Shown piece by piece: positions 1,464 through 14,817 of a stretch of 32,000 bases of DNA. A program made the translations under genes and the position numbers. The stretch's first letter is position 1; each line of letters begins with the position of its first letter. The stretch is taken from NCBI GenBank assembly GCA_965231035.1, contig OZ246409.1:421101-453100 (forward strand). The letters are read 5' to 3'. The notes under the pieces were generated by a model. It did not search any database. It saw only the letters and a program-made list of their open reading frames with translations, and was not told where the DNA came from. Origin of the DNA: an uncultured Muribaculaceae bacterium (GTDB lineage Bacteria; Pseudomonadota; Alphaproteobacteria; Rs-D84).

Positions 1464-1871
1464 TCAAGAGCCTGTATAAGAACAAACAGAGGAATATCCA
1501 TAATCACCAGTAATATCAGTTCCGGTATAACTTGCTGGAAGATAACAACCATTTTTATTGGTTGTTCCTTGAATAGATGTTGCATTTGGATTACCAGTTC
1601 CCGATGCACAACTTACACAAGCAATAGAGTTAACTGGATCACCATAATAACCAGCCTTGCACTTACAATCTGAAATTAATGTAGAACCAGTTCCAGCGGT
1701 TGTTGAGTTTGTTGGACATTTCTCACAATAATTCAACTTAAGATAATATCCTGAGTTACAAGATTCGTAAACTATTGTTGTTTCTCCTTCTTCACAAACC
1801 AATGCTAATGCGTTTAAAGAAAAAAACATTGCGCCAAATATAAACGATAAAAAGAAAAATTTTTTATTCAT
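1464..1871 (-). CDS. Small secreted cysteine-rich protein, paralog 1
   Basis: 135-aa ORF with signal peptide MNKKFFFLSFIFGAMFFSLNALA. The mature part has 10 Cys and is G/S/T/Y/N rich. It contains the module CNSGYY..CEKCPTNSTTAGTGSTLISDCKCKAGYYG..CVSCASGTG. Confidence 0.7.
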   Translation of the reverse strand: MNKKFFFLSFIFGAMFFSLNALALVCEEGETTIVYESCNSGYYLKLNYCEKCPTNSTTAGTGSTLISDCKCKAGYYGDPVNSIACVSCASGTGNPNATSIQGTTNKNGCYLPASYTGTDITGDYGYSSVCSYTGS

Positions 1872-1893
1872 ATATTTATTACTTTAAAATTAT

Positions 1894-2262
1894 TTATACC
1901 ATACCACCATCACAAACACAAACTGTTTGGTATCCAGTACCACGCACATCAGAATAATCTGTAAATTCTAGTGAACAAACCGTAGTTCCGCCACCAGTAC
2001 CAGTATAGTTACAATAATAATAAGGACAACCACTACCAGAAGCATAAGTTTTTGTATATCCTGAATTACAAGCTGTTGCAGTACAAGAAAAAATCCAATA
2101 TCCACCGCTGTCACATCCTTTAAAATCAACTTGTCCAGATGGACATCCTACCATAGTGTATGGTTCCGTTGGAGTATTATTACAAGTACCTGTACATGCA
2201 TCACCATATGATCTTGAACTAAATGATATTATTATTAAAAATACAATTAAACAATTTTTCAT
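1894..2262 (-). CDS. Small secreted cysteine-rich protein, paralog 2
   Basis: 122-aa ORF with signal peptide MKNCLIVFLIIISFSSRSYG. It contains CNSGYTKTY and CPSGQ motifs and ends in CDGGMV. Confidence 0.65.
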   Translation of the reverse strand: MKNCLIVFLIIISFSSRSYGDACTGTCNNTPTEPYTMVGCPSGQVDFKGCDSGGYWIFSCTATACNSGYTKTYASGSGCPYYYCNYTGTGGGTTVCSLEFTDYSDVRGTGYQTVCVCDGGMV

Positions 2263-2279
2263 TTCTTCTCTTTAAACCC

Positions 2280-2564
2280 CTAGTTTGTATAATAACAAGC
2301 ACTTGTGTATATATAACTTCCTGACGAATTTTCACCACCAGTTCCAGCAGCATAAAAACAACTGGTTATTAAGTTATTGCTGCCCGAAACACTTGTTCCA
2401 CCGCTTGGACAAAGTGAACAAGAACAAGATGAAGTTCCTTGATTTACAACATAATAATTCACATTACAAACACAATTATAACTGCTATTAGTACACGCAG
2501 CAAATGAAGAATTCATAAATAACACAACACTTGCTACAAACAAAATTTTATATATATTCATCAT
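2280..2564 (-). CDS. Small secreted cysteine-rich protein, paralog 3
   Basis: 94-aa ORF with signal peptide MMNIYKILFVASVVLFMNSSFA. CSLCPSGGTSVSGSNNLITSC aligns with CEKCPTNSTTAGTGSTLISDC of paralog 1. The start overlaps the upstream gene's stop (ATGATGA). Confidence 0.65.
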   Translation of the reverse strand: MMNIYKILFVASVVLFMNSSFAACTNSSYNCVCNVNYYVVNQGTSSCSCSLCPSGGTSVSGSNNLITSCFYAAGTGGENSSGSYIYTSACYYTN

Positions 2565-2872
2565 GATAACATGCCACCCAAATCACATGCAGCTGCAATA
2601 CCATTTTTACAATAAACAAGTACCCCTGTATTTGGACAAACTTCATTCCAATATCTTGTTCCACCAGTTATTGCAACAGATTGCGGGGTACTAGTATTAC
2701 CACAAGAATAACAAGATTCATCACATGGATTTTCGTCACAAAATGTAGAACTTTCAGAAATTGCTAAATTAGCAGCTGTACAACTTCCGCAACACCATCC
2801 TGTTACCAGAACAGCCCCAGAATATCCTTCTGTAATTAAAATCATAAAAAACGCAATTAAAAAATTTTTCAT
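2561..2872 (-). CDS. Small secreted cysteine-rich protein, paralog 4
   Basis: I chose the internal ATG at 2872 (MKNFLIAFFMILITEGYSG...), because the longer track ORF (to 2956) would read through a strong terminator hairpin. It has 13 Cys and ends in CDLGGMLS, similar to the paralog 2 C-terminus. Confidence 0.6.
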   Translation of the reverse strand: MKNFLIAFFMILITEGYSGAVLVTGWCCGSCTAANLAISESSTFCDENPCDESCYSCGNTSTPQSVAITGGTRYWNEVCPNTGVLVYCKNGIAAACDLGGMLS

Positions 2873-2920
2873 TTTTATCTCTGTTTCTTTGATTTTAGCT
2901 ATTATGTCAAAAAAAAACCA

Positions 2921-2948
2921 CAAAAAAATACCGCCGAAACGACGGTAT
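2921..2948 (-). terminator. Rho-independent terminator after the gltX/hlyIII unit
   Basis: ataccgccg-aaa-cgacggtat forms a 9-bp stem (one G:U on the minus strand) flanked by a run of A (T-run on the minus strand), about 20 nt past the hlyIII stop. Confidence 0.7.
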
Positions 2949-2965: not shown

Positions 2966-3712
2966 CTATAAATAAATTATGCTGCCGAACAGGACTGCAA
3001 AGAAAAAGCATACACTGCCACCGATTACAAACAGGTGCCAAATTGCATGACTGAACTTCATTTTTCTCCAAATATAAAATATTACTCCGACTGAATAAGA
3101 CAATGCACCTGCCAACATAAACCACAAACCGATTGATGGTACGCTTCTGAATAATGCAGGCAGCATAAACAATACTGTCCAACCCATTATCAGGTATAAT
3201 GCAACCATCCATTTCGGTTGACGCTTTGGACTACGAATTTTCATAATCGCACCAAATATAACGATTGCCCACAAAATTCCAAAAACCGTCCAACCCAATC
3301 CACCACGCATATTAACCAACAAGAACGGTGTGTATGTTCCAGCAATCAAGGCATAGATTGCAATGCTGTCCCATACTTCGAAAAAGCTTTCGCTTTTTTG
3401 ACCAATCATCGCATGGCACATTGTTGAACCAAAATATAGTGTGAACATTGTTAATCCAAATATAGCACAAGATACAATCGCCCAAGGATCACCCTTTAAC
3501 ACCGCAAAAACTTCCAGCAAAGTTAATCCAGCAATTGCCAAGCCAATTCCAATTCCATGGGTTAAAATATTCAAAACTTCTTCAGACTTGGTCGCAGGCT
3601 TTTCCCAACGGAACAAACCTGTTGCCTGCAAAACACGCAGTAGCGTCCAAGCACGTTTATCTTTTTTAACTTCTTTTAATTTTTGTCTTATAACTTTTCT
3701 TGATTTTACCAT
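2966..3712 (-). CDS. Hemolysin III family channel protein (PAQR/YplQ-like)
   Basis: Multi-TM protein with LTHGIGIGLAIAG, CHAM and HAIWHLFVIGG motifs typical of HlyIII. I chose the start at 3712, which is preceded by AAGGAAGG. Confidence 0.85.
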   Translation of the reverse strand: MVKSRKVIRQKLKEVKKDKRAWTLLRVLQATGLFRWEKPATKSEEVLNILTHGIGIGLAIAGLTLLEVFAVLKGDPWAIVSCAIFGLTMFTLYFGSTMCHAMIGQKSESFFEVWDSIAIYALIAGTYTPFLLVNMRGGLGWTVFGILWAIVIFGAIMKIRSPKRQPKWMVALYLIMGWTVLFMLPALFRSVPSIGLWFMLAGALSYSVGVIFYIWRKMKFSHAIWHLFVIGGSVCFFFAVLFGSIIYL

Positions 3713-6405: not shown

Positions 6406-7065
6406 TTAACTGTCTATAAAAAACTTTACTTTTTTGGAAATTTCTGACTGCATTTTTTGAATTAAACGCCAAACTTGTTCTATCTTTTCATAATCGTTAT
6501 TTAACGAGAAATGTAACTCTGTATTTAAATCTTTATCCAAACCATCCAAGAACCCATAAATACGTCCAACAAAGTCATAATTTTTTTTCAAGTCATTATG
6601 AAAATCTAATAATAAAACATCTGCCCTTATTTTTTTTATTTCCGAAAAAACATTAACCCAATCCAATGAGTTTATTTCATCAACATCCAAACAAATTGAT
6701 AATGTTTTATTAAAAAATAAATCATCTCTGATTGGTAATAATTCAGATACAAAAGAAGATAATAAAGAGTACGGTACAAAAATTTGTGCCCCACCCGCCC
6801 CTTTCTTAAAAACAGAATTTATTTCTGTTGATAACTTTGAAATATCAAAATTTTTATCCAGATAAAAACGTGCCATTATTCTTGTTAAATTTTTTTCCAA
6901 CCATGGCCATAAAATCTGGACTGATTCTTGTGGTACAGATATAACAGGTATATTTTCCTTTACCACTACTTCGGCCATTCGTACAAGTTCAGAAATATCT
7001 CTATTTGGTTTACATTCTAGAACCAAGATATCTTTTAATTCTTCAAAAACATTTTCAGTATTCAT
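6406..7065 (-). CDS. Hypothetical protein with weak DeoC/class I aldolase TIM-barrel resemblance, Schiff-base Lys position not conserved
   Basis: KKGAGGAQIFVPYSLLSS compares with DERA AYGADEVDVVFPYRALMAG. IRADVLLLDFH compares with AGADFIKTSTG, with Leu at the Lys position. The DERA sequence is recalled from memory. The start could be 7065 or 7095. Confidence 0.4.
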   Translation of the reverse strand: MNTENVFEELKDILVLECKPNRDISELVRMAEVVVKENIPVISVPQESVQILWPWLEKNLTRIMARFYLDKNFDISKLSTEINSVFKKGAGGAQIFVPYSLLSSFVSELLPIRDDLFFNKTLSICLDVDEINSLDWVNVFSEIKKIRADVLLLDFHNDLKKNYDFVGRIYGFLDGLDKDLNTELHFSLNNDYEKIEQVWRLIQKMQSEISKKVKFFIDS

Positions 7066-7072
7066 GCTTTTC

Positions 7073-7085
7073 AGTTTATCACAAA
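7073..7085 (-). promoter_or_regulatory. Extended -10 promoter (TTTGTGATAAACT) 7 nt upstream of the ATG at 7065
   Basis: The minus strand reads tttgTGATAAACT-gaaaagc-ATG. It belongs to the recurring TTTGTGATAnAnT motif in this window. Confidence 0.4.
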
Positions 7086-7087
7086 TA

Positions 7088-7096
7088 TGGTACAAT
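7088..7096 (+). promoter_or_regulatory. Extended -10 promoter (TGGTACAAT) 9 nt upstream of the ATG at 7106
   Basis: TGgTACAAT-taaaaccaa-ATG with no SD. It sits back-to-back with the minus-strand element. Confidence 0.4.
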
Positions 7097-7105
7097 TAAA
7101 ACCAA

Positions 7106-8020
7106 ATGAATAAAAGAATTGACCGTTTTCTTTTGGGGCTGCTTTGGCTTTTGGCTATGACGCTTGGTGCCAATTTTTGGTTCACGACCCGTTTTGGTTT
7201 TAATATTTTTCTTGTATCTCATTGGAAATATCTTGGGGAAATCCAGGCTGCTGGTTCGGAAATAGAACCTTTGTTTTATATTTCCTTGGTAGTTTTTGCA
7301 TTTTTAACGGTTTTTGGACTTTTTATGCTTGTTCGAACCAAACTTAGAAAAATAACATTTGATACTGGAAAAGAATCATCATTGGAAAAAACTGTTGTTG
7401 TTGAAACTCCTGTAATAAAAATGTCAGAGATTGTGATACCAGAAAAAAAAGAAAATGTTTTATCACCTGTTCGTCCACCCAGATTGTCTATTCCTGTGAC
7501 GCCAAATTATTCCGTACCAAAGAATCAAAATAATTTAAGACCGGACGTACCTGTTAATAATATTCCGGAAATACCGACCCAGGTAAAAAACAAGACTGTT
7601 TCAGGTATCGAAACATCCGAAATTGAAGAGATATTCAAACAATCTGGTTATCTGGTTAAAAAACCTTCCAGAATTGCTGGTTTTCTTCCAGATTTATTTG
7701 CAATTGGTGCAGACGAAGTATTATGGGTTGGCGGTATTGGTTCAAATCCAAATGAAATGTCTAATGCTTTGGAAAAATTAAAGGCTATTTTCAAAGACAC
7801 ATTGGAAGATATAGACATTAACGTAAAATCGTTTATAATATCTGATGACAATGCTTCTACTGATGATTTTGCATCAATTGAGAAGTTTGCCTCAGTTCAA
7901 GAACTGCGTGATTATATGGGCAAAAATAAAAGTAGAGAAATTCAAAATTCAGAACAAGAAGATTTTGAAGCTTATTCTGAATACATAGATACGGTTGCAG
8001 ATTATTTTAACAAGTTATAA
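7106..8020 (+). CDS. Membrane-anchored protein with Pro-rich linker and C-terminal restriction-endonuclease-fold-like module
   Basis: Two N-terminal TM helices and the linker PVRPPRLSIPVTPNYSVP. The C-terminus EIEEIFKQSGYLVKK..FLPDLFAIGADEVLWVGG..ALEKLKAIFKD..INVKSFII has an alpha-beta3-alpha-beta pattern with PD...E-x-L where PD-(D/E)xK would sit. Confidence 0.45.
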   Translation: MNKRIDRFLLGLLWLLAMTLGANFWFTTRFGFNIFLVSHWKYLGEIQAAGSEIEPLFYISLVVFAFLTVFGLFMLVRTKLRKITFDTGKESSLEKTVVVETPVIKMSEIVIPEKKENVLSPVRPPRLSIPVTPNYSVPKNQNNLRPDVPVNNIPEIPTQVKNKTVSGIETSEIEEIFKQSGYLVKKPSRIAGFLPDLFAIGADEVLWVGGIGSNPNEMSNALEKLKAIFKDTLEDIDINVKSFIISDDNASTDDFASIEKFASVQELRDYMGKNKSREIQNSEQEDFEAYSEYIDTVADYFNKL

Positions 8021-8039
8021 ACAACGGGAAAATAAAACT

Positions 8040-8546
8040 ATGCAGCTTAAGAAATCATCCGCAGAAAAAAGATTAGAAGATTTGTTTATGGACGATCTGC
8101 CAGTAGTGGAATTCGCCGTCCAGGAATCTTGTGTAGTTCCAGATTGGTTTGCCAAATACAGATCTTTGCGCCGTGATTTTATGAAATCTTTAACTGATTC
8201 TATTGAAGACCTTGCTTTTCTTAATTTATCCCAAGATGAATTTATGGGACTAATTATGGGACGCTCTTTGCCCCCTAACCTTTCTTTAAGATTTCGTATT
8301 CCATTGGTATGGGGTGGAAAATTGGAAATAGAAAATATGTTTATGTGCAGAACTTTTCCACACAGTCATAACATGGACAGATTTATAATCGAACAAGCTG
8401 GCAGTCCCACTATATGGCTCCCTAATCCTGTCAGAAAAGTTTATGTACCAGCACATACTACTGGTGGTGGCGATGGCGGTAATGCAACCGAAGACAGATT
8501 AAGCCAACTGGCTTCACAACTAGCTTCTTCAAGGGGTATGGAATAA
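8040..8546 (+). CDS. Small protein with a degenerate HNH/beta-beta-alpha-Me-like motif (candidate toxin component)
   Basis: RFRIPLVWGGKLEIENMFMCRTFPHSHN resembles HxxPxxxGGxxxxxNxxxxCxxCH, but has Phe at the first His position. The start at 8040 follows GGGAAA. It is tightly coupled to the next ORF. Confidence 0.35.
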   Translation: MQLKKSSAEKRLEDLFMDDLPVVEFAVQESCVVPDWFAKYRSLRRDFMKSLTDSIEDLAFLNLSQDEFMGLIMGRSLPPNLSLRFRIPLVWGGKLEIENMFMCRTFPHSHNMDRFIIEQAGSPTIWLPNPVRKVYVPAHTTGGGDGGNATEDRLSQLASQLASSRGME

Positions 8547-8548
8547 AA

Positions 8549-8983
8549 ATGGATATAATGGAATTTTTATCTTATATGAAATCTAATGGTGCAACATTTG
8601 TGCCTGCTGCTAGTACAGCAAATATATCAATGGCCAGCAGTAATTTACAAAATATTCGTGCGGCCACACTGCCTCCTTTTATGATAGATTTTTATAAAAA
8701 TGTTGGCGGTATGATTTTAGGAGACGCATACATATTTGGACCAGATCAAATAACTGTGACCAAAAAATTTCCTGTGCCATCAATACTAGAAGTAAATCGT
8801 GAAATAATTGATTTACCACAGGTTCGTGGAAAAACCGTTTTTGGCAGAAATGATTTATTCTGGTTTGCGTTTGATGCTTTTGGAATATGTTTTATGTTGG
8901 ATAATATTTCATTAAAACCAGTACGTAAATATGACGATCCTTGGCGCGCCATGACTGATTGCTTAATAGTAGGAAAGATGTGA
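8549..8983 (+). CDS. SMI1/KNR4 (SUKH)-like protein (candidate immunity component)
   Basis: NIRAATLPPFMIDFYKNVGGMILGD plus C-terminal GRNDLFWFAFDAFGICFMLD fit the SUKH pattern (LPxxhxxFhxxxNGG ... GxD ... D..G). It starts 2 nt after the upstream stop. Confidence 0.45.
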   Translation: MDIMEFLSYMKSNGATFVPAASTANISMASSNLQNIRAATLPPFMIDFYKNVGGMILGDAYIFGPDQITVTKKFPVPSILEVNREIIDLPQVRGKTVFGRNDLFWFAFDAFGICFMLDNISLKPVRKYDDPWRAMTDCLIVGKM

Positions 8984-9195
8984 AAAAAATATCTGTTTCT
9001 TTATCAGGTCATCAAACCAGCATCACACTGGAAGATGAATTTTTTGACGCTTTGAAAAAAATAGCCGACACGGATAAAAAATCTGTTGCATCTATAATCA
9101 ATTCAATAGATGAAAAAAGAACGCCTGAATCTAACCTTTCTTCCGAGATAAGGATATATATATTGAACAGATTGTTGAAAACAGCAAAATTATAA
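8980..9195 (+). CDS. Ribbon-helix-helix (RHH_4-type) DNA-binding protein
   Basis: KKISVSLSGHQTSITLEDEFFDALKKIADTDKKSVASIINSIDEKR...NLSSEIRIYILNRLL matches the alphaproteobacterial RHH_4 pattern (GHxTSxxLEdxFW..L..iA...). A GTG start at 8980 overlaps the upstream stop (GTGA) and is preceded by AGGAAAG. Confidence 0.7.
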   Translation: MKKISVSLSGHQTSITLEDEFFDALKKIADTDKKSVASIINSIDEKRTPESNLSSEIRIYILNRLLKTAKL

Positions 9196-11122
9196 TCATC
9201 CACATATCACGTCCCAATTCTCGATAAATAGTTATATGATGACCACCAATAATTCCGTCCAAACTGCCCGCTTCGCCAACCTGCAAAGATGATTCAATTG
9301 TTCCATCCGATGAAATAAAAGCACTGATACCAGAATAATTTGCACGAACAATCGGTAACCCAGATTCAATAGCATATCTGCGAACCATATCCAGATGCTG
9401 ATAAGTACCAGGTGTTTTATCAAACCAATTATCATTAGTAATATTTATAATAGCCTGGGGTTGATGTTCTGAATTTTTTGGAATCAAAGAATCTGAAAAT
9501 ATTATTTCATAGCAAATTGCCGGTGCAAAATAAAAATCATTATCTTTTAATTTCAGCTTTATAATTTCTGGACCATTTCCAGGTGTCAGTAACCCGGGTG
9601 TTGGAATTAAATTCCCAAACGGACGGTATTCCCCGAATGGTACCAAATGTGATTTACTGTATATTTTTTGTATATTCCCTTCTTTATTAACGACCAGCAA
9701 AGAATTATAAAGTTTCCCATAATCATAAGTAGTTGCACCCATAATTGTTTGGGTTTTTAATTTTTTCACAATGTCCAGATTCTCATTTATAACTAAATAC
9801 GGATATGTTGTTTCTGGAAATATCATCAAGTCAACTGGCTCATCATCTTTGCTTGCCAAGTACCCTAAATTTTTTATATTTTCTTCGGCATTTGCAATTG
9901 CCTGTGCACGGGAATAAGTTGCTTTTTCTTCAGCTGACTTTCCAGGTTGAATTATTCTTATTATTGGTGATGAATCATAATTTTTATTATTGGATTTTTT
10001 TATGTTTTGATACCCAAAAAATATTCCAATAATTAATAATGTTAAAAATACAAAAAATGGAAAAAATATTATCTTTGATTTTCTGTTTTTTATAATCTCG
10101 ACTGTGCTGGATATTAAACCAATAATTATAAATGTTAAACCAAAGGCACCCCACAAAGACATAGAGTTAGATAGTATCGGAAACGGCATTGTTATGTTCG
10201 AAATTGGGTTCCATGGGAATCCTGTAAAAAGCCATTCACGAAGCCACAAAACAAACACCCAAATTGATGCGAATAAAAACGTTCTATGTGCACTGTTCTG
10301 CCGCATACAGTGAATTATTATGAATGGAATCGCAAAAATAAATCCGCCAACAATTCCAATTCCAATTAATGCAGGAACTGTCCAAATTGCAAACTTTGCC
10401 ATCAGTTCCGGAACAACATAAATTGAATTAACAACCCACCAAAATTGACCAACCGCATAGGCGGCTGTGAATGGTAAAATTCTGAACATTGATTTCCAAA
10501 ATTTATGTTTATGATTATTATCTAAATCATAAATTGTAATACCGTATGCCAGACCTATTCCAAGTACAGTTCCCCACCACAGATTAAACGGTGCAAAACC
10601 AATGGAAGATAACAATCCAAGAAATATCAAAACAAAAGATCTTAAAACTATTTTGTTTGAAATTTTTCCAATAATTCTATTAAAAATATTTTCTTTTTTA
10701 TCATCTGAATAAGGATTTTTAATACCAAGTTTTTTTAATAACTTTATTTCCAAATTTTCCATTTTTTTTGCATCCCGATTATTCAAATGATCATACCCCA
10801 TCAGATGAAGTACACCATGAACAAGCATGTGTGTTGTATGTTCTTCAAATGTTTTGTTTTGCTCTTTTGCCTCTCTTGCGACAGTATCAAAGGATATAAA
10901 AATATCACCCAACAATTCGTTATCCCCTGTTTCAAAAGAAAGAACATTTGTGGGCTTGTCAATTTTTCTGTATTTTTTATTCAGCACTTTGATTTCTTTA
11001 TCATTTGTCAGAATAATAGAAACTTCAGCATTTTTAGTTTTGTTCACAGATTCAACAATTCGCATAAAATCAATCTTGTGCGATTTCCATCTGGTATCGT
11101 TATAATTTACAAAAGTTTTCAT
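9131..11122 (-). CDS. ybeY/lnt: In-frame fusion of the YbeY endoribonuclease domain (about residues 1-140) with apolipoprotein N-acyltransferase Lnt (about residues 158-663)
   Basis: The N-terminus has HGVLHLMGYDH (YbeY zinc motif). The rest is a multi-TM Lnt with the nitrilase-type triad context FPETTYP, KSHLVPFGEY and PAICYEIIF. It is a single 663-codon ORF with no stop or ATG at the junction. Confidence 0.85.
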   Translation of the reverse strand: MKTFVNYNDTRWKSHKIDFMRIVESVNKTKNAEVSIILTNDKEIKVLNKKYRKIDKPTNVLSFETGDNELLGDIFISFDTVAREAKEQNKTFEEHTTHMLVHGVLHLMGYDHLNNRDAKKMENLEIKLLKKLGIKNPYSDDKKENIFNRIIGKISNKIVLRSFVLIFLGLLSSIGFAPFNLWWGTVLGIGLAYGITIYDLDNNHKHKFWKSMFRILPFTAAYAVGQFWWVVNSIYVVPELMAKFAIWTVPALIGIGIVGGFIFAIPFIIIHCMRQNSAHRTFLFASIWVFVLWLREWLFTGFPWNPISNITMPFPILSNSMSLWGAFGLTFIIIGLISSTVEIIKNRKSKIIFFPFFVFLTLLIIGIFFGYQNIKKSNNKNYDSSPIIRIIQPGKSAEEKATYSRAQAIANAEENIKNLGYLASKDDEPVDLMIFPETTYPYLVINENLDIVKKLKTQTIMGATTYDYGKLYNSLLVVNKEGNIQKIYSKSHLVPFGEYRPFGNLIPTPGLLTPGNGPEIIKLKLKDNDFYFAPAICYEIIFSDSLIPKNSEHQPQAIINITNDNWFDKTPGTYQHLDMVRRYAIESGLPIVRANYSGISAFISSDGTIESSLQVGEAGSLDGIIGGHHITIYRELGRDMWMIIILLFSTICSIYISLSRKKG

Positions 11123-11484
11123 TATTTTTTCCCCAGACCAGTTTTCTTTGCAATTTTGGAACGAACCCTCGAATAGCTGGATGCAACAAAAGGATAATTA
11201 TTTGGCAATCCCCATTTTGAACGATATTGGGTTGGTGTCATATTAAACTTACGTTTTATATACCGACGCAGCATTATGTGCCAGGTACCATCTTCCAGAC
11301 ATTGAATTTTATCCAAGCGCACCGAATCTTTTATTTGCTGTGGTGTAATAGATGCACCACGAAGATGTTCAGTTGCCTGTTTTACAGCATCCGCCATGGT
11401 CAGTTTTGGATTCGCAGAAATAGCTGCAGCCGCCAGTTGTGCCACCGCCAAGGCAAAATCATTATTTTTTACTATTTCTTTCAT
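11122..11484 (-). CDS. mucR: MucR/Ros family transcriptional regulator, zinc ligands mostly substituted
   Basis: IQCLEDGTWHIMLRRYIKRKFNMTPTQYRSKWGLPNNYPFVASSYSRVRSKIAKKTGLG aligns to Ros ITCLECG...KRHL..HH.MTPEEYR.KW.LP.DYPMVAP.Y. Its stop overlaps the ybeY ATG (TAATG). Confidence 0.85.
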   Translation of the reverse strand: MKEIVKNNDFALAVAQLAAAAISANPKLTMADAVKQATEHLRGASITPQQIKDSVRLDKIQCLEDGTWHIMLRRYIKRKFNMTPTQYRSKWGLPNNYPFVASSYSRVRSKIAKKTGLGKK

Positions 11485-11519
11485 TTTGCTTTCGCTTTGT
11501 TGTTTTTTGTACTAATATT

Positions 11520-11532
11520 ATTGTATCACAAA
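11520..11532 (-). promoter_or_regulatory. Extended -10 promoter (TTTGTGATACAAT) for mucR
   Basis: The minus strand reads tttgTGATACAAT, ending 35 nt upstream of the ATG at 11484. Confidence 0.45.
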
Positions 11533-11558
11533 TAAAACCAAAGTAAAATAAAAGTAAA

Positions 11559-12848
11559 ATGCGTAAAACAATCGAATCTTCTGGTCGTCCATTGGCAGAT
11601 CTTATGCGTCCAAAAACTATTGATGAAGTTCTGGGTCAAAATTTGTTGTTGGGTGAAAATGGTTTAATTCGCAGAATGGTTGAAAATAAAAAACTTTCTA
11701 ATCTGATTCTTTGGGGACCGCCCGGATGCGGAAAAACAACAATAGCACGCGCCCTGGCAAATTCTGTTGATATGGATTTTGTTCCAATGTCGGCTGTATT
11801 TTCAGGGACTGCTGATATAAAAAAAGCAATGGAAGCCGCCAAAATGAATTGTGCTATTGGGCGGTCTACCCTGCTTTTTATTGATGAAATCCACAGATTT
11901 AATAAAACCCAACAAGACACTTTACTTCCATATCTGGAAGATGGAACGGTTGTATTTATTGGTGCAACTACTGAAAACCCCAGCTTTAATTTAAATAATG
12001 CTTTGTTGTCGCGTTGCCATGTTTGTGTTTTGCAACCATTATCTACGGAAGATTTGATTGAATTAATTGATAGATCTGAAAAATTTCTTGGAATAAAAAA
12101 ATTACCATTAGCAAATGAATCAAGAATTCATTTGGCACAAATGGCTGATGGAGATGCAAGGTTTTTATTAAACACTGTTGAATATCTTGTTTCTGCAAAA
12201 TTTGATCATGATTTGTCACCTGTTGAATTAGATAATGCGATTCAAAAACGTCCCCCACTTTCTGATAAAAGTGGTGACGAACATTATAATCTGATTTCTG
12301 CTGTTCACAAATCTTTACGTGCCAGTGATACAGATGCCGCACTTTACTGGACCGCACGAATGATGATTGGCGGTCAAGATCCAATGTATTTGTTCAGACG
12401 TTTAACCAGATTCGCAATGGAAGATATTGGTCTGGCAGATCCAAACGCGATGAGTGTTGCCCTGACTGCATGGCAGGTTTATGAAAGAATGGGTTCACCC
12501 GAAGGTGATTTGGCATTAACAGAATTGGTAATTTATTTGGGAACCGCACCGAAAAGTATCGGAAATTACAAGGCACAAAAATCCGCGTATGCGGCAGCCA
12601 CTGCCAATGGTAGCCTGATGCCGCCAAAAAATATTTTAAACGCACCAACAAAAATGATGAAAAATTTGGGATACAGCTCCGGGTATGTTTACGAGCCTGA
12701 AACAGAATCCGGATTTTCAGGTCAAAATTGTTTTCCCGAAGGAATGAAGAGGCAAACTTTCTATACCCCACATGAAATTGGTTTCGAACGTGAAATTAAA
12801 AAGCGCATAGATTACTGGAATAAAATCCGTGATCAGAAAAAAAATTAA
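11559..12848 (+). CDS. rarA: Replication-associated recombination protein A (AAA+ ATPase)
   Basis: Walker A GPPGCGKTT, Walker B LFIDEIHRFNK, and the C-terminal MgsA region HYNLISAVHKSLRASD.DAALYW. Confidence 0.92.
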   Translation: MRKTIESSGRPLADLMRPKTIDEVLGQNLLLGENGLIRRMVENKKLSNLILWGPPGCGKTTIARALANSVDMDFVPMSAVFSGTADIKKAMEAAKMNCAIGRSTLLFIDEIHRFNKTQQDTLLPYLEDGTVVFIGATTENPSFNLNNALLSRCHVCVLQPLSTEDLIELIDRSEKFLGIKKLPLANESRIHLAQMADGDARFLLNTVEYLVSAKFDHDLSPVELDNAIQKRPPLSDKSGDEHYNLISAVHKSLRASDTDAALYWTARMMIGGQDPMYLFRRLTRFAMEDIGLADPNAMSVALTAWQVYERMGSPEGDLALTELVIYLGTAPKSIGNYKAQKSAYAAATANGSLMPPKNILNAPTKMMKNLGYSSGYVYEPETESGFSGQNCFPEGMKRQTFYTPHEIGFEREIKKRIDYWNKIRDQKKN

Positions 12849-12883: not shown

Positions 12884-13600
12884 CTAGAACAAAATATTTA
12901 AATTTGCACCGAATTGATATTCACTTGATTCAAATTCATAATCAACATGTGCAACATATTCTGTGCGTCCATATTTTCTGACCAGTTTAAAGTTTATCCA
13001 TTCTTGATCAAACACTGGATTTGTTGATTTACGCAAATCAAATCCTAAACCTGTCATCCAACTAGGACTTATTTTTACATATGCCTCGGGCATCAAATCA
13101 ATATAAGCCATACCTGAAACTTCGTCAAAAATCCAAGTTGTCTTTATGGTTCCTGCCAAAGTAAACGAAGACCATTGGCGTCCAAAACGCATTCCGGCAT
13201 AATATGCAGTATTTGCAAAATCAGGTGTGCGAACACGATCACTGCCACCAAAGTTAACCCCAAAAAGTGCGTCTGAAATTGCCTCGGATTCGGAATTACC
13301 AGAAATACGATAAATACCACCAACACCAATGTGAGAAAATCCGTCATCGGTTCCATTAAAATCCTGTTGATATTTAATGTTTGCATTTAAAGCCAATCTG
13401 CCGTTTACACCATACGAAAACATTTGCGATACACGTATAACACTGTCATTCAAATACAGTCCAGATCTAGATAAAAAATCACCAGAGCTTTCCAAAAATA
13501 TTGGATTTTCAGTATCAAAATCTGACTCTGCGTTAGCCGCAAAAATCGGCAATCCGCACAAAACCGTAAATGATAAAATTTTTAATATTTTATTTTTCAT
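12884..13600 (-). CDS. Small outer-membrane beta-barrel protein
   Basis: Signal peptide MKNKILKILSFTVLCGLPIFAANA, alternating beta-strand pattern, and the C-terminal ...GANLNILF aromatic terminus typical of OMPs. Confidence 0.7.
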   Translation of the reverse strand: MKNKILKILSFTVLCGLPIFAANAESDFDTENPIFLESSGDFLSRSGLYLNDSVIRVSQMFSYGVNGRLALNANIKYQQDFNGTDDGFSHIGVGGIYRISGNSESEAISDALFGVNFGGSDRVRTPDFANTAYYAGMRFGRQWSSFTLAGTIKTTWIFDEVSGMAYIDLMPEAYVKISPSWMTGLGFDLRKSTNPVFDQEWINFKLVRKYGRTEYVAHVDYEFESSEYQFGANLNILF

Positions 13601-13620
13601 ATTTCATTTCCGTAACAATT

Positions 13621-14817
13621 TTAGAAATACAATATTCCTTGGACACCAAATGAAGTTTCCAAAGTATTATTCAATTTTGCAGTTCCTATTTTTGTAAATT
13701 CTGTTACACCTGCACTTGGTTCATACCACCAGAATCCCAGTTTTTTGCCATCTGCATTATCATATACAGATGTTTTAGCATATAGATTCAAAGAGAAATT
13801 GTTATATGGTTGCCATCCAACTACCCCTTTGATAGATGCTTGATTATGCCAATCATAATTTCCGAATAATCCTTCAACATTTAATGTCCAATCTTTATCC
13901 AAAACGCTGAAAACGCCAAATCCACCTTCGTAGTAATTTACATTATTGTCGCCAGTTTTATAAGCAATCAATAATGCTGCATTATCATTTGATATTCCAT
14001 TTCCATAAGAATTCATATCAAAGTTTACAAACCATCCACGTGCCAAACCATATATTGTAGAAGAACCAATTTTGTAACCAGCCTTTGCATCAACTGCAAA
14101 AAAGTCTGCTAAATCACTTTGTCTTTGATAATATCCAGAAATATTTGCAATCCATTCGTTTGTATCAACAAAACGCCACTGCAAACCCAGACCGTACATA
14201 TTTAAACCAGAATCTGTCATTTCGTCATCAGACGCAGTTGACCAATCCATAGAATATTTTGAATAATCATATCTGACCATACCCATCAAAGCTAAATTAT
14301 CTGTAACACCATAGCTGATATCTTCTTTTACATACATCTGACCTGCATTCCATGTTGCCTTGGTATCACTTAATGCTGGTCCTGTTGTTTGATCAATTTT
14401 GAAATCATAAGAACTGTTTGTATAACCCAAATCAGTTACAGAACCAAATTTACCAGCCAATGGTTGAAAGAAAGGATGTGCCAAATAATATTTGCGCTTG
14501 GCATCTGCACGTGCTGATTCTGTACGTGAAGTTCTGTCGTATTGATTTGTTGATTCAGAATTATAAGCCTTGTACAAAGCACTTCTTTTAGAAGGTTCTG
14601 TATAATAAATATTATTATTGTCTTTTACTGCATAAGTTTTTGATGTGCTGCGTGTTTCATACTTTTCATAATTTACCCTTGTTTGAACACGTGCGCCTGG
14701 TGCACTGCTGAGATCTGCAGTGGAAGAACCATCAACAGCTGCGTTCGCAGAACTAAAAACACTGGCCATTCCGAAAACTGCAATTGCCCAAACAAAAAGT
14801 GACATCTGTTTTTTCAT
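13621..14817 (-). CDS. Outer-membrane porin-like beta-barrel protein
   Basis: Signal peptide ...ASVFSSANA. The protein is Gly/Tyr/Asn-rich with an amphipathic strand pattern and ends in GVQGILYF. AAGGAG RBS. Confidence 0.7.
   Translation of the reverse strand: MKKQMSLFVWAIAVFGMASVFSSANAAVDGSSTADLSSAPGARVQTRVNYEKYETRSTSKTYAVKDNNNIYYTEPSKRSALYKAYNSESTNQYDRTSRTESARADAKRKYYLAHPFFQPLAGKFGSVTDLGYTNSSYDFKIDQTTGPALSDTKATWNAGQMYVKEDISYGVTDNLALMGMVRYDYSKYSMDWSTASDDEMTDSGLNMYGLGLQWRFVDTNEWIANISGYYQRQSDLADFFAVDAKAGYKIGSSTIYGLARGWFVNFDMNSYGNGISNDNAALLIAYKTGDNNVNYYEGGFGVFSVLDKDWTLNVEGLFGNYDWHNQASIKGVVGWQPYNNFSLNLYAKTSVYDNADGKKLGFWWYEPSAGVTEFTKIGTAKLNNTLETSFGVQGILYF

Follow-up and report, generated by a model that had tools for sequence, protein, structure and literature searches.

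What are the four small, cysteine-rich proteins that are encoded between hlyIII and thrS on contig OZ246409.1 of assembly GCA_965231035.1, and how are they related to each other? We analyzed a stretch of 32,000 nucleotides (nt) from this contig (positions 421,101 to 453,100), which we call the window. The four proteins, P1 to P4, are encoded by consecutive minus-strand open reading frames (ORFs) of 94-135 amino acids (aa), and all four ORFs are where a preliminary description of the window had placed them (Table 1). Cysteine accounts for 7.4-9.8% of the residues of P1-P4, as compared to a mean of 1.0% (and a maximum of 3.1%) in 25 other ORFs from the window. Each of the four ORFs has 8-12 cysteines, instead of the 9-14 that were first reported. 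Overall, the comparisons described below indicate that the cluster combines a bacterial variant of a known module family, PF07699 (Ephrin_rec_like/GCC2_GCC3), which is represented by P1 and P3, with two orphan cysteine-rich proteins, P2 and P4.

The preliminary description took all four proteins to be diverged paralogs, but only P1 and P3 are significantly similar. Their local alignment has z = 6.75, which 0 of 500 composition-preserving shuffles reached, and no pair that includes P2 or P4 rose above composition-matched shuffles. (The recurring motifs that had been pointed out, CNSGYY/CNSGYT and CEKCP.../CSLCP..., are present.) P5, a protein of 189 aa that is encoded by the fifth gene of the cluster in a relative (L084), gives the same pattern: its C-terminus is homologous to P1 (z = 9.2) and P3 (z = 11.9), and not to P2 or P4. 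Similarly, a hidden Markov model (HMM) for the family of P1 and P3 matched P1 (E = 5.4e-21) and P3 (E = 5.2e-12) and nothing else within the 32-kb window.

We looked for distant kinship of P2 and P4 in several other ways. The family HMM found nothing in P2. For three P4 orthologues, its scores were marginal, with 1-9 of 300 shuffles equaling them, and we took them as not significant. Another HMM, for which we took the variable N-terminal regions from about 46 members of the family, did not score P2 or P4 above shuffles either. When the profiles of P4 and P2 were compared to the family and to each other with hhalign, the signal peptides alone aligned. In pairwise comparisons of P2 with 87 hits, its alignments to family cores reached z ≤ 3.7. 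The codons for CNSGY give a 16/17-nt in-frame match between P2 and P1, and P2 may be a very diverged or degenerate relative of the family core, but these hints are too weak to count. P1 and P3 are thus homologous to each other, while P2 and P4 are lineage-restricted cysteine-rich orphans that share only alignable signal peptides with the family.

The family of P1 and P3 is larger than the window would suggest. Word-indexed searches with P1 or P2 alone returned the query itself plus one orthologue each. An exhaustive phmmer search (E ≤ 1e-3) with P0002, which is a 228-aa orthologue of P1, returned 1469 proteins. Among the best 150 of these 1469, most are far longer than P1 (many have 1-5 thousand aa) and match in many stretches. 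When scanned with Pfam, the three top matches turned out to be giant proteins in which PF07699 modules are stacked (365-590 bits). We then searched with a profile that was built from P1, P3, P5, P0002, and P0039, and aligned 63 members of the family. The profile search found 92 proteins, of which about 65 have the C-terminal tail motif of the family; these are 93-463 aa long, and mostly about 130-290 aa. Those family members that have a name are nearly all "hypothetical protein [Alphaproteobacteria bacterium]" and come from metagenome-assembled genomes (MAGs) from the gut. The eukaryotic matches in this search included a Tetrahymena immobilization antigen and a protein from Hanusia phi.

Most members of the family look like small exported proteins with one or a few modules. 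An N-terminus that resembles a signal peptide is present in 58 of the 63 aligned members. The core has the consensus Y.C.SGYYGTATS..GCT.CP.NATCAGGN.STF.CN.GYYK.G..C..CP and is followed, at the very C-terminus, by the tail ...TSI..CY[IL]P.GT.FSD.TG...YT..CYY. P1 matches PF07699 with 24.4 bits, which passes the gathering score of 23.1, and its orthologue P0002 matches with 32 bits. By itself, P3 is below Pfam's threshold, so its membership follows only from its homology to P1 and P5. Of the 63 aligned members, 18 match PF07699, 6 weakly match the model for the variant-specific surface proteins (VSPs) of Giardia, and 3 match a TNFR-like model. The likeness to Ephrin-receptor-like, GCC2_GCC3, and TNFR modules that was noted earlier therefore holds for P1, and for P3 by way of its homology, but not for P2 or P4, which have no such match. 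The statement that the module is unlike bacterial domains did not survive the search, given that there are about 65 small bacterial homologues in MAGs of gut Alphaproteobacteria. PF07699 has been described as a eukaryotic invention that occurs in bacteria only as isolated cases, ascribed to horizontal gene transfer (PMC6993872), and our literature search found no paper on a bacterial family that is based on it. P1 and P3 belong to an undescribed family of about 65 or more members, which combine a predicted signal peptide with a variable number of PF07699 modules and a C-terminal module that is peculiar to the family.

P2 and P4 have orthologues of their own. The orthologue of P2 (P0004) is 82% identical, keeps all 11 mature cysteines, and ends with CDDSGLV. 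The P4 orthologues in L084 (102 aa) and in L086 (108 aa) keep 9 of the 10 cysteines, the motif QSVAITGGT.YW, an ending with CD.GG, and a 4-nt overlap with the next gene. These orthologues begin at an ATG that is equivalent to position 2872, which agrees with the start that was originally chosen for the fourth ORF. Two proteins had been said to end with CD(x)GGM; this ending is present and is kept in the P4 orthologues, but it is not kept in the orthologue of P2. Across three lineages, the consensus of P4 is SCYSCG.T..QSVAITGGT.YW...C...VYC...CD.GG, and P4 is a separate small family. Neither P2, P3, nor P4 matches any model in Pfam, and NCBIfam and PADLOC gave no match for the cluster, P4 included. 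A single-sequence AlphaFold2 model of P4 had a predicted local distance difference test (pLDDT) score of 50, which is unreliable, and we left it out of the fold search. We also considered whether P4 and P3 are the halves of a split ancestral gene of 190 aa, and rejected this because genes of the P3 type encode a conserved signal peptide of their own.

Comparisons between relatives show that all four ORFs are genuine and fast-evolving genes. We searched related genomes and computed the ratio of nonsynonymous to synonymous divergence (dN/dS) between orthologues. A close relative (L002, L084, and L085), whose thrS has a synonymous divergence (dS) of 0.23, has orthologues of P1, P2, P3, and P4. 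The more distant L086 (thrS dS = 1.19) has P4 plus genes of the P3/P1 type. dN/dS is 0.48 for P1, 0.63 for P2, and 0.38 for P4, as compared to 0.04 for thrS and 0.01 for hlyIII. When the cluster genes are pooled, the proportion of synonymous sites that differ exceeds that of nonsynonymous sites (pS > pN, p = 4.5e-5). In the close pair, 30 of 31 mature cysteines are kept, and between P4 and its orthologue from L086, which share 9 of 10 cysteines, only 30 of the 69 other residues are kept. The cysteine scaffold is thus fixed, while the remainder evolves over 10 times faster (by dN) than the neighboring genes. In AT-rich DNA like this, the probability of a stop-free run of 94-135 codons is 5e-4 to 2e-5, and the ORFs were also called by the gene callers of the source collections on several contigs. 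The stop codon of P4 overlaps the start codon of P3 (ATGA, 4 nt), and this overlap is kept in three lineages; P4 is translationally coupled to P3. The other genes are separated by 17 nt (P3 and P2) and 22 nt (P2 and P1).

In a side observation on codon usage, the GC content at third codon positions is 0.11-0.19 in the cluster, as compared to 0.27 ± 0.03 in 18 reference genes from the window, and 95% of the cysteine codons are TGT. Possible reasons for the low value are weak expression, relaxed selection, or a foreign origin.

All four proteins are predicted to be exported by the Sec system. Each begins with M-K/N-K, continues with a hydrophobic core of 10 residues (mean Kyte-Doolittle hydropathy of 2.3-3.5), and then has a small-x-small site (ALA|L, SYG|D, SFA|A, and SGA|V across the four proteins). 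These calls rest on a heuristic that considers the charge, the hydrophobic core, and the small-x-small site. In the profile comparison, the N-termini of P2 and P4 align to the signal-peptide columns of the family. The signal peptides of the preliminary description, which was less sure about P4, thus extend to all four proteins, and we consider Sec export to be a well-supported prediction. The proteins end with CSYTGS, CYYTN, or GGM, without a transmembrane segment. In P3, SFAAC fits the PROSITE lipobox PS51257, and so do FAGC or WAAC in P0039, P0163, and P0164. Since the lipobox cysteine of P3 aligns with a cysteine of P1 that is not in a lipobox, and since the number of cysteines in P3 is even only if this one is counted, cleavage by signal peptidase I is favored, and a lipoprotein is a minor possibility.

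The content of the slot between hlyIII and thrS varies greatly among relatives. In the window, the slot holds four genes (P4, P3, P2, and P1), while in L084 it holds five (P5, P4, a frameshifted P3, P2, and a 228-aa P1). At least three genes are present in L086, namely one that resembles P4, one of 274 aa that is similar to P3 and P1, and one that resembles P5, of which the end is seen. A single family gene (195 aa) fills the slot of L087/L088, another Enterousia-like lineage, and none of these genes is present in the slot of L005 (Enterousia sp.), which has only an unrelated ORF of 119 aa. (This ORF, at 9430-9789 of L005, has no signal peptide and contains CCDGCGEHC.)

Several kinds of change can be recognized within the slot. 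P1 has 135 aa and its orthologue P0002 has 228 aa; the difference of 93 aa amounts to three extra modules in P0002, and the breakpoints of their alignment overlap inside a repeated stretch. In the orthologue of P3, a duplication of 5 nt shifts the reading frame, as seen in three independent assemblies. P3 itself is a mosaic of two family lineages, with a predicted signal peptide, one degenerate module, and the C-terminal tail of the family: residues 1-52 are similar to P0039 (29/52 identical), and residues 53-94 to P5 (23/41). In both the window and L084, the first gene of the cluster (P4 and P5, respectively) follows a leader with about 95% identity between the two. This implies that P5 was deleted in the lineage of the window, from one start codon to the next. 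The slot is thus a hot spot of local expansion, with duplication, deletion, changes in module number, recombination between paralogues, and pseudogenization, all in place.

The preliminary description viewed the array as an independent cassette that was inserted between its neighbors. This is not supported: sister lineages hold family genes in the same slot. We found no integrases or other mobility genes near the cluster and no signs of mobile elements among the window's genes, and a tblastn search of phage and plasmid collections with the P1 orthologue gave no match. Family genes of more distant MAGs are found at other sites, surrounded by housekeeping genes, and are mostly single. In L089/L090, from one of these gut alphaproteobacterial MAGs, a family gene lies beside rho, and two more ORFs that are positive with the family HMM (about 270 aa each) are about 2-3 kb away, so small clusters of the family exist outside of Enterousia as well. 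(The ORFs of this region are at 8834-9649 on the plus strand and at 9695-10531 and 10828-12588 on the minus strand, and it includes a gene that encodes about 1750 aa and has no Pfam domains.) Another family-like protein, P0182 (184 aa), is encoded on a 473-kb contig (L094, from GCA_023665245.1) that was deposited as "Muribaculaceae bacterium." A weak match of the Rickettsia 17-kDa antigen type near P0182 suggests that the contig is proteobacterial, and that its taxonomic label may be wrong.

The host of the cluster is a gut alphaproteobacterium with a reduced genome, of the Candidatus Enterousia / Rs-D84 group. The threonyl-tRNA synthetase that is encoded next to the cluster is 85-86% identical to those of MAGs that are named Candidatus Enterousia sp. 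and Alphaproteobacteria bacterium, and cluster genes were found on contigs of up to 849 kb. Rs-D84/Enterousia are gut bacteria with genomes of under 1 Mb that lack respiration and most biosynthesis, and for Enterousia, from the order Rs-D84, an obligate life as symbionts or parasites of other cells was proposed (PMC12306168).

What might these proteins do? With the alignment of 63 sequences, the AlphaFold2 model of P1 has an overall pLDDT of 77.5, with 84-95 for most of the mature protein, and consists of short beta-hairpins. In a Foldseek search with this model, the very top matches were all cysteine-rich domains of the TNFR superfamily or Eph type, and the top 50 matches in the PDB were mostly of the TNFR superfamily, along with some ectodomains of EphA2 and EphB2 and similar cysteine-rich domains. 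The viral matches included TNFR-like and Ephrin_rec_like proteins, among them viral TNFR decoys, as weak neighbors. The reading that we prefer, with a probability of about 0.55, is that the proteins are exported, fold via a disulfide ladder, and have a binding or coat role at the envelope or surface of a partner-dependent bacterium, as a lineage-specific and diversifying cluster. Small proteins with a cysteine scaffold would be exported by Sec, and their conserved cysteines would then form a ladder of disulfides. The result would be rod-like, protease-resistant proteins in the cell envelope or on the cell surface, which might serve for binding or as a coat where the bacterium touches a partner cell or the host. 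The cluster would meanwhile diversify in place, by the kinds of changes described above.

Several observations weigh against this surface-protein reading. The structural matches are not significant (the best had E = 0.07, with TM-scores of about 0.2-0.3), and a search of PDB sequences with the family profile likewise had no significant match, with CD46 (E = 0.21) at the top. The proteins could simply remain in the periplasm, given that we identified neither an anchor (transmembrane segment, sortase signal, or CTERM signal) nor a system for secretion across the outer membrane. For P2 and P4, relatives were detected in only two or three close lineages. The dN/dS values of about 0.4-0.6, the pseudogenized copy, and the lost copy would also fit partly dispensable proteins under relaxed constraint. 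Finally, in an anaerobe without respiratory chains, the classical oxidation of disulfides via DsbB and quinones may be missing. This last point would fit periplasmic proteins that bind metals or buffer redox, with the CxxC cysteines acting as thiolates, much as zinc binding was proposed for the CXXC motifs of Giardia VSPs. C-x2-C pairs are indeed frequent (CEKC, CVSC, CSLC, CGSC, CYSC), and in many family members the approximate number of mature cysteines is odd. We nevertheless consider a metal or redox role to be unlikely: in the solved structures of the eukaryotic receptors that top the fold search, PF07699/TNFR-like modules form disulfide ladders, P1 and P3 of the window and the long relatives have even numbers of cysteines, and metal-transport genes are not adjacent. 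Still less plausible is a bacteriocin-like family of disulfide-rich antimicrobial peptides or toxins, secreted against competitors or the partner cell. Small size, apparent export, abundant cysteines, rapid divergence, and changes in copy number within a multi-gene cluster would all fit toxins. But there are no genes for immunity, ABC transporters, proteases, or modification nearby (the neighbors are gltX, hlyIII, and thrS instead), and the homologues in other MAGs are single genes amid housekeeping genes. Also, the module is shared with huge repeat proteins, not with toxins. As for clusters that encode bacteriocins or ribosomally synthesized and post-translationally modified peptides, we found neither accessory genes nor any match to a defense or toxin model, whether in PADLOC or in NCBIfam.

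The eukaryotic affinity of the module raises another alternative, that the proteins are mimics directed at the host, i.e. secreted TNFR-like or Eph-like decoys for ligands of the host or of protists, which were acquired horizontally from a eukaryote. PF07699 is held to be eukaryotic, and its rare occurrences in bacteria have been ascribed to transfer, as mentioned above; the best matches from outside the family that we scanned are giant PF07699-repeat proteins, and the profile search reached Tetrahymena and Hanusia phi. Viral TNFR decoys are among the weak structural neighbors, and the GC content at third positions is below that of the neighboring genes. Yet just one or two modules are left, with 35-40% identity to eukaryotic modules, and the structural matches lack significance. 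Because the family is old and widespread in gut Alphaproteobacteria, any transfer must have been ancient, and we think that mimicry of this kind is very improbable. A related scenario, which we would also call unlikely, is that an ancestor of these partner-dependent gut Alphaproteobacteria captured a gene for a PF07699 surface protein of a protist or animal, from which the family descends, and that it is now a variable, recombining coat or adhesin, or a decoy for ligands, that helps a bacterium with a genome of under 1 Mb attach to or evade a eukaryotic partner. If this were true, the family would be a bacterial counterpart of the variant surface antigens of protists or the TNFR decoys of viruses. 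At the far end, the ORFs might be spurious, arising from low-complexity AT-rich DNA; P2, P3, and P4 lack Pfam matches and P1 has no obvious Shine-Dalgarno sequence. This we regard as almost certainly wrong: reading frames, lengths, and cysteines are kept across lineages, synonymous differences are in excess, the matches to the family HMM are strong, the chance per ORF is at most 5e-4, and gene callers found the ORFs on several contigs.

The boundaries of the cluster are not what they first seemed. The array had been described as terminator-bounded, with a terminator upstream and a hairpin downstream. The upstream terminator is real and strong, with an identical counterpart in L084, and it marks the 5' boundary of the cluster, but it ends the upstream gene, hlyIII. 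Between it and the first cluster gene is a conserved leader, in which a minus-strand promoter scan found no canonical sigma-70 site. On the downstream side, the hairpin that had been taken for a boundary of the array has no T-run after it on the minus strand. We compared this region between the window, L002, L086, L087, L005, and L004 (for L004, only about 390 nt upstream of thrS). A promoter-like site and two hairpins are kept upstream of thrS in 6/6 of these loci, including L005, which lacks the cluster, so these elements belong to thrS. As read from the alignment, the GCGA/TCGC stem of hairpin 2 is replaced by a compensatory GCGG/CCGC in L005 and L004. The region (1300-1470) had no match in Rfam and is a candidate cis-regulatory leader of the threonyl-tRNA synthetase in Rs-D84 bacteria.

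Table 1. Features of the cluster and its flanks in the window.
Feature	Position	Strand	Description
hlyIII	2966-3712	minus	Upstream flank of the slot
hlyIII intrinsic terminator	2925-2951	minus	12-bp stem with 5 G-C pairs, then a T-run; identical in L084
Conserved leader	2873-2924	minus	Upstream of the first cluster gene
P4	2561-2872	minus	103 aa, 10 Cys; exported-looking Cys-rich orphan; probable cleavage after S-x-A at residue 20
P3	2280-2564	minus	94 aa, 8 Cys; member of the PF07699-based family
P2	1894-2262	minus	122 aa, 11 mature Cys; exported-looking Cys-rich orphan
P1	1464-1871	minus	135 aa; predicted signal peptide, one PF07699 module, and family C-terminal module ending CYLP...CSYTGS
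thrS promoter-like site	1439-1467	minus	TTGATT-17-TATAGT; the -35 box contains the stop codon of P1; not part of the cluster
thrS leader hairpin 1	1378-1393	minus	CAACCCC-TTGG-GGGGTTG
thrS leader hairpin 2	1355-1366	minus	GCGA-TTTT-TCGC
thrS start	near 1300	minus	Downstream flank of the slot

The neighbors of the cluster are gltX, an 87-aa ORF, hlyIII, and thrS. The rest of the 32-kb window encodes housekeeping functions (gltX, a trmB-like gene, a YbeY-Lnt fusion, MucR, FtsK, SecDF-YajC, MutL, GreA, LptF/G, and XerC/D-like proteins), and these include SecD, SecF, YajC, Lnt, and LptF/G, which are involved in export or in the biogenesis of the outer membrane. The YbeY-Lnt fusion is a 663-aa ORF (9131-11122, minus strand) that joins the endoribonuclease YbeY to apolipoprotein N-acyltransferase (LNT_N + CN_hydrolase), and it was likewise called in the relatives L084 and L087. 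Other ORFs in the window lack Pfam matches: four at 6406-8983 (229, 304, 183, and 144 aa), whose order is kept in L084 and L087, and two at 12884-14817 (238 and 398 aa).

Rs-D84/Enterousia bacteria are common in the guts of animals and humans and are thought to depend on partner cells. An exported family with a eukaryote-type module, in a slot that varies in the number of genes, the number of modules, and even in reading frame, is an obvious candidate for an interaction surface, and for the P1/P3 family this is a plausible role in an enigmatic gut lineage with reduced genomes. Reports of this domain family from bacteria had so far concerned isolated cases only, to which our family adds about 65 proteins, and P1, P3, and P4 are concrete targets for experiments.

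How does the family compare to known systems? With eukaryotic PF07699 proteins it shares the periodicity C-x2-C-P ... C-x-C-x2-G-Y-Y. In contrast to these, its members are bacterial and tiny, with one to a few modules instead of the tens in giant repeat proteins; they have a Sec signal peptide and no transmembrane segment, kinase, or other domains; and they have an extra C-terminal module (CY[IL]P...SD.TG..Y...CYY) that lies outside of any Pfam model. Among the isolated bacterial cases of Eph/ephrin-type domains that were ascribed to horizontal transfer, YM304_37510 from Ilumatobacter coccineum (PMC6993872) also has a eukaryote-type PF07699 module. Here, by contrast, we see a whole family of about 65 or more proteins, mostly from Alphaproteobacteria of host guts, which has an architecture of its own, occupies a conserved slot in Enterousia-like genomes, and has expanded locally. 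Poxvirus Crm/vTNFR proteins are likewise small and secreted, are built from TNFR-like cysteine-rich modules, and are weak structural neighbors, but for our family there is no significant match in sequence or structure and no evidence of cytokine binding. A further analogy is to the surface coats of protists. Giardia VSPs (PF03302) and the immobilization antigens of Tetrahymena and Paramecium are also rich in CXXC motifs and in G, S, and T, with periodic modules, and they too are fast-evolving multigene families with variation in repeat number and mosaic recombination. The proteins of the window do not match the VSP model PF03302, and the family lacks the C-terminal transmembrane segment and CRGKA tail of the Giardia VSPs, as well as a GPI signal. 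It also has only 4-5 linked genes, with no evidence of switching or mutually exclusive expression, and unlike the protist coats, it is bacterial.

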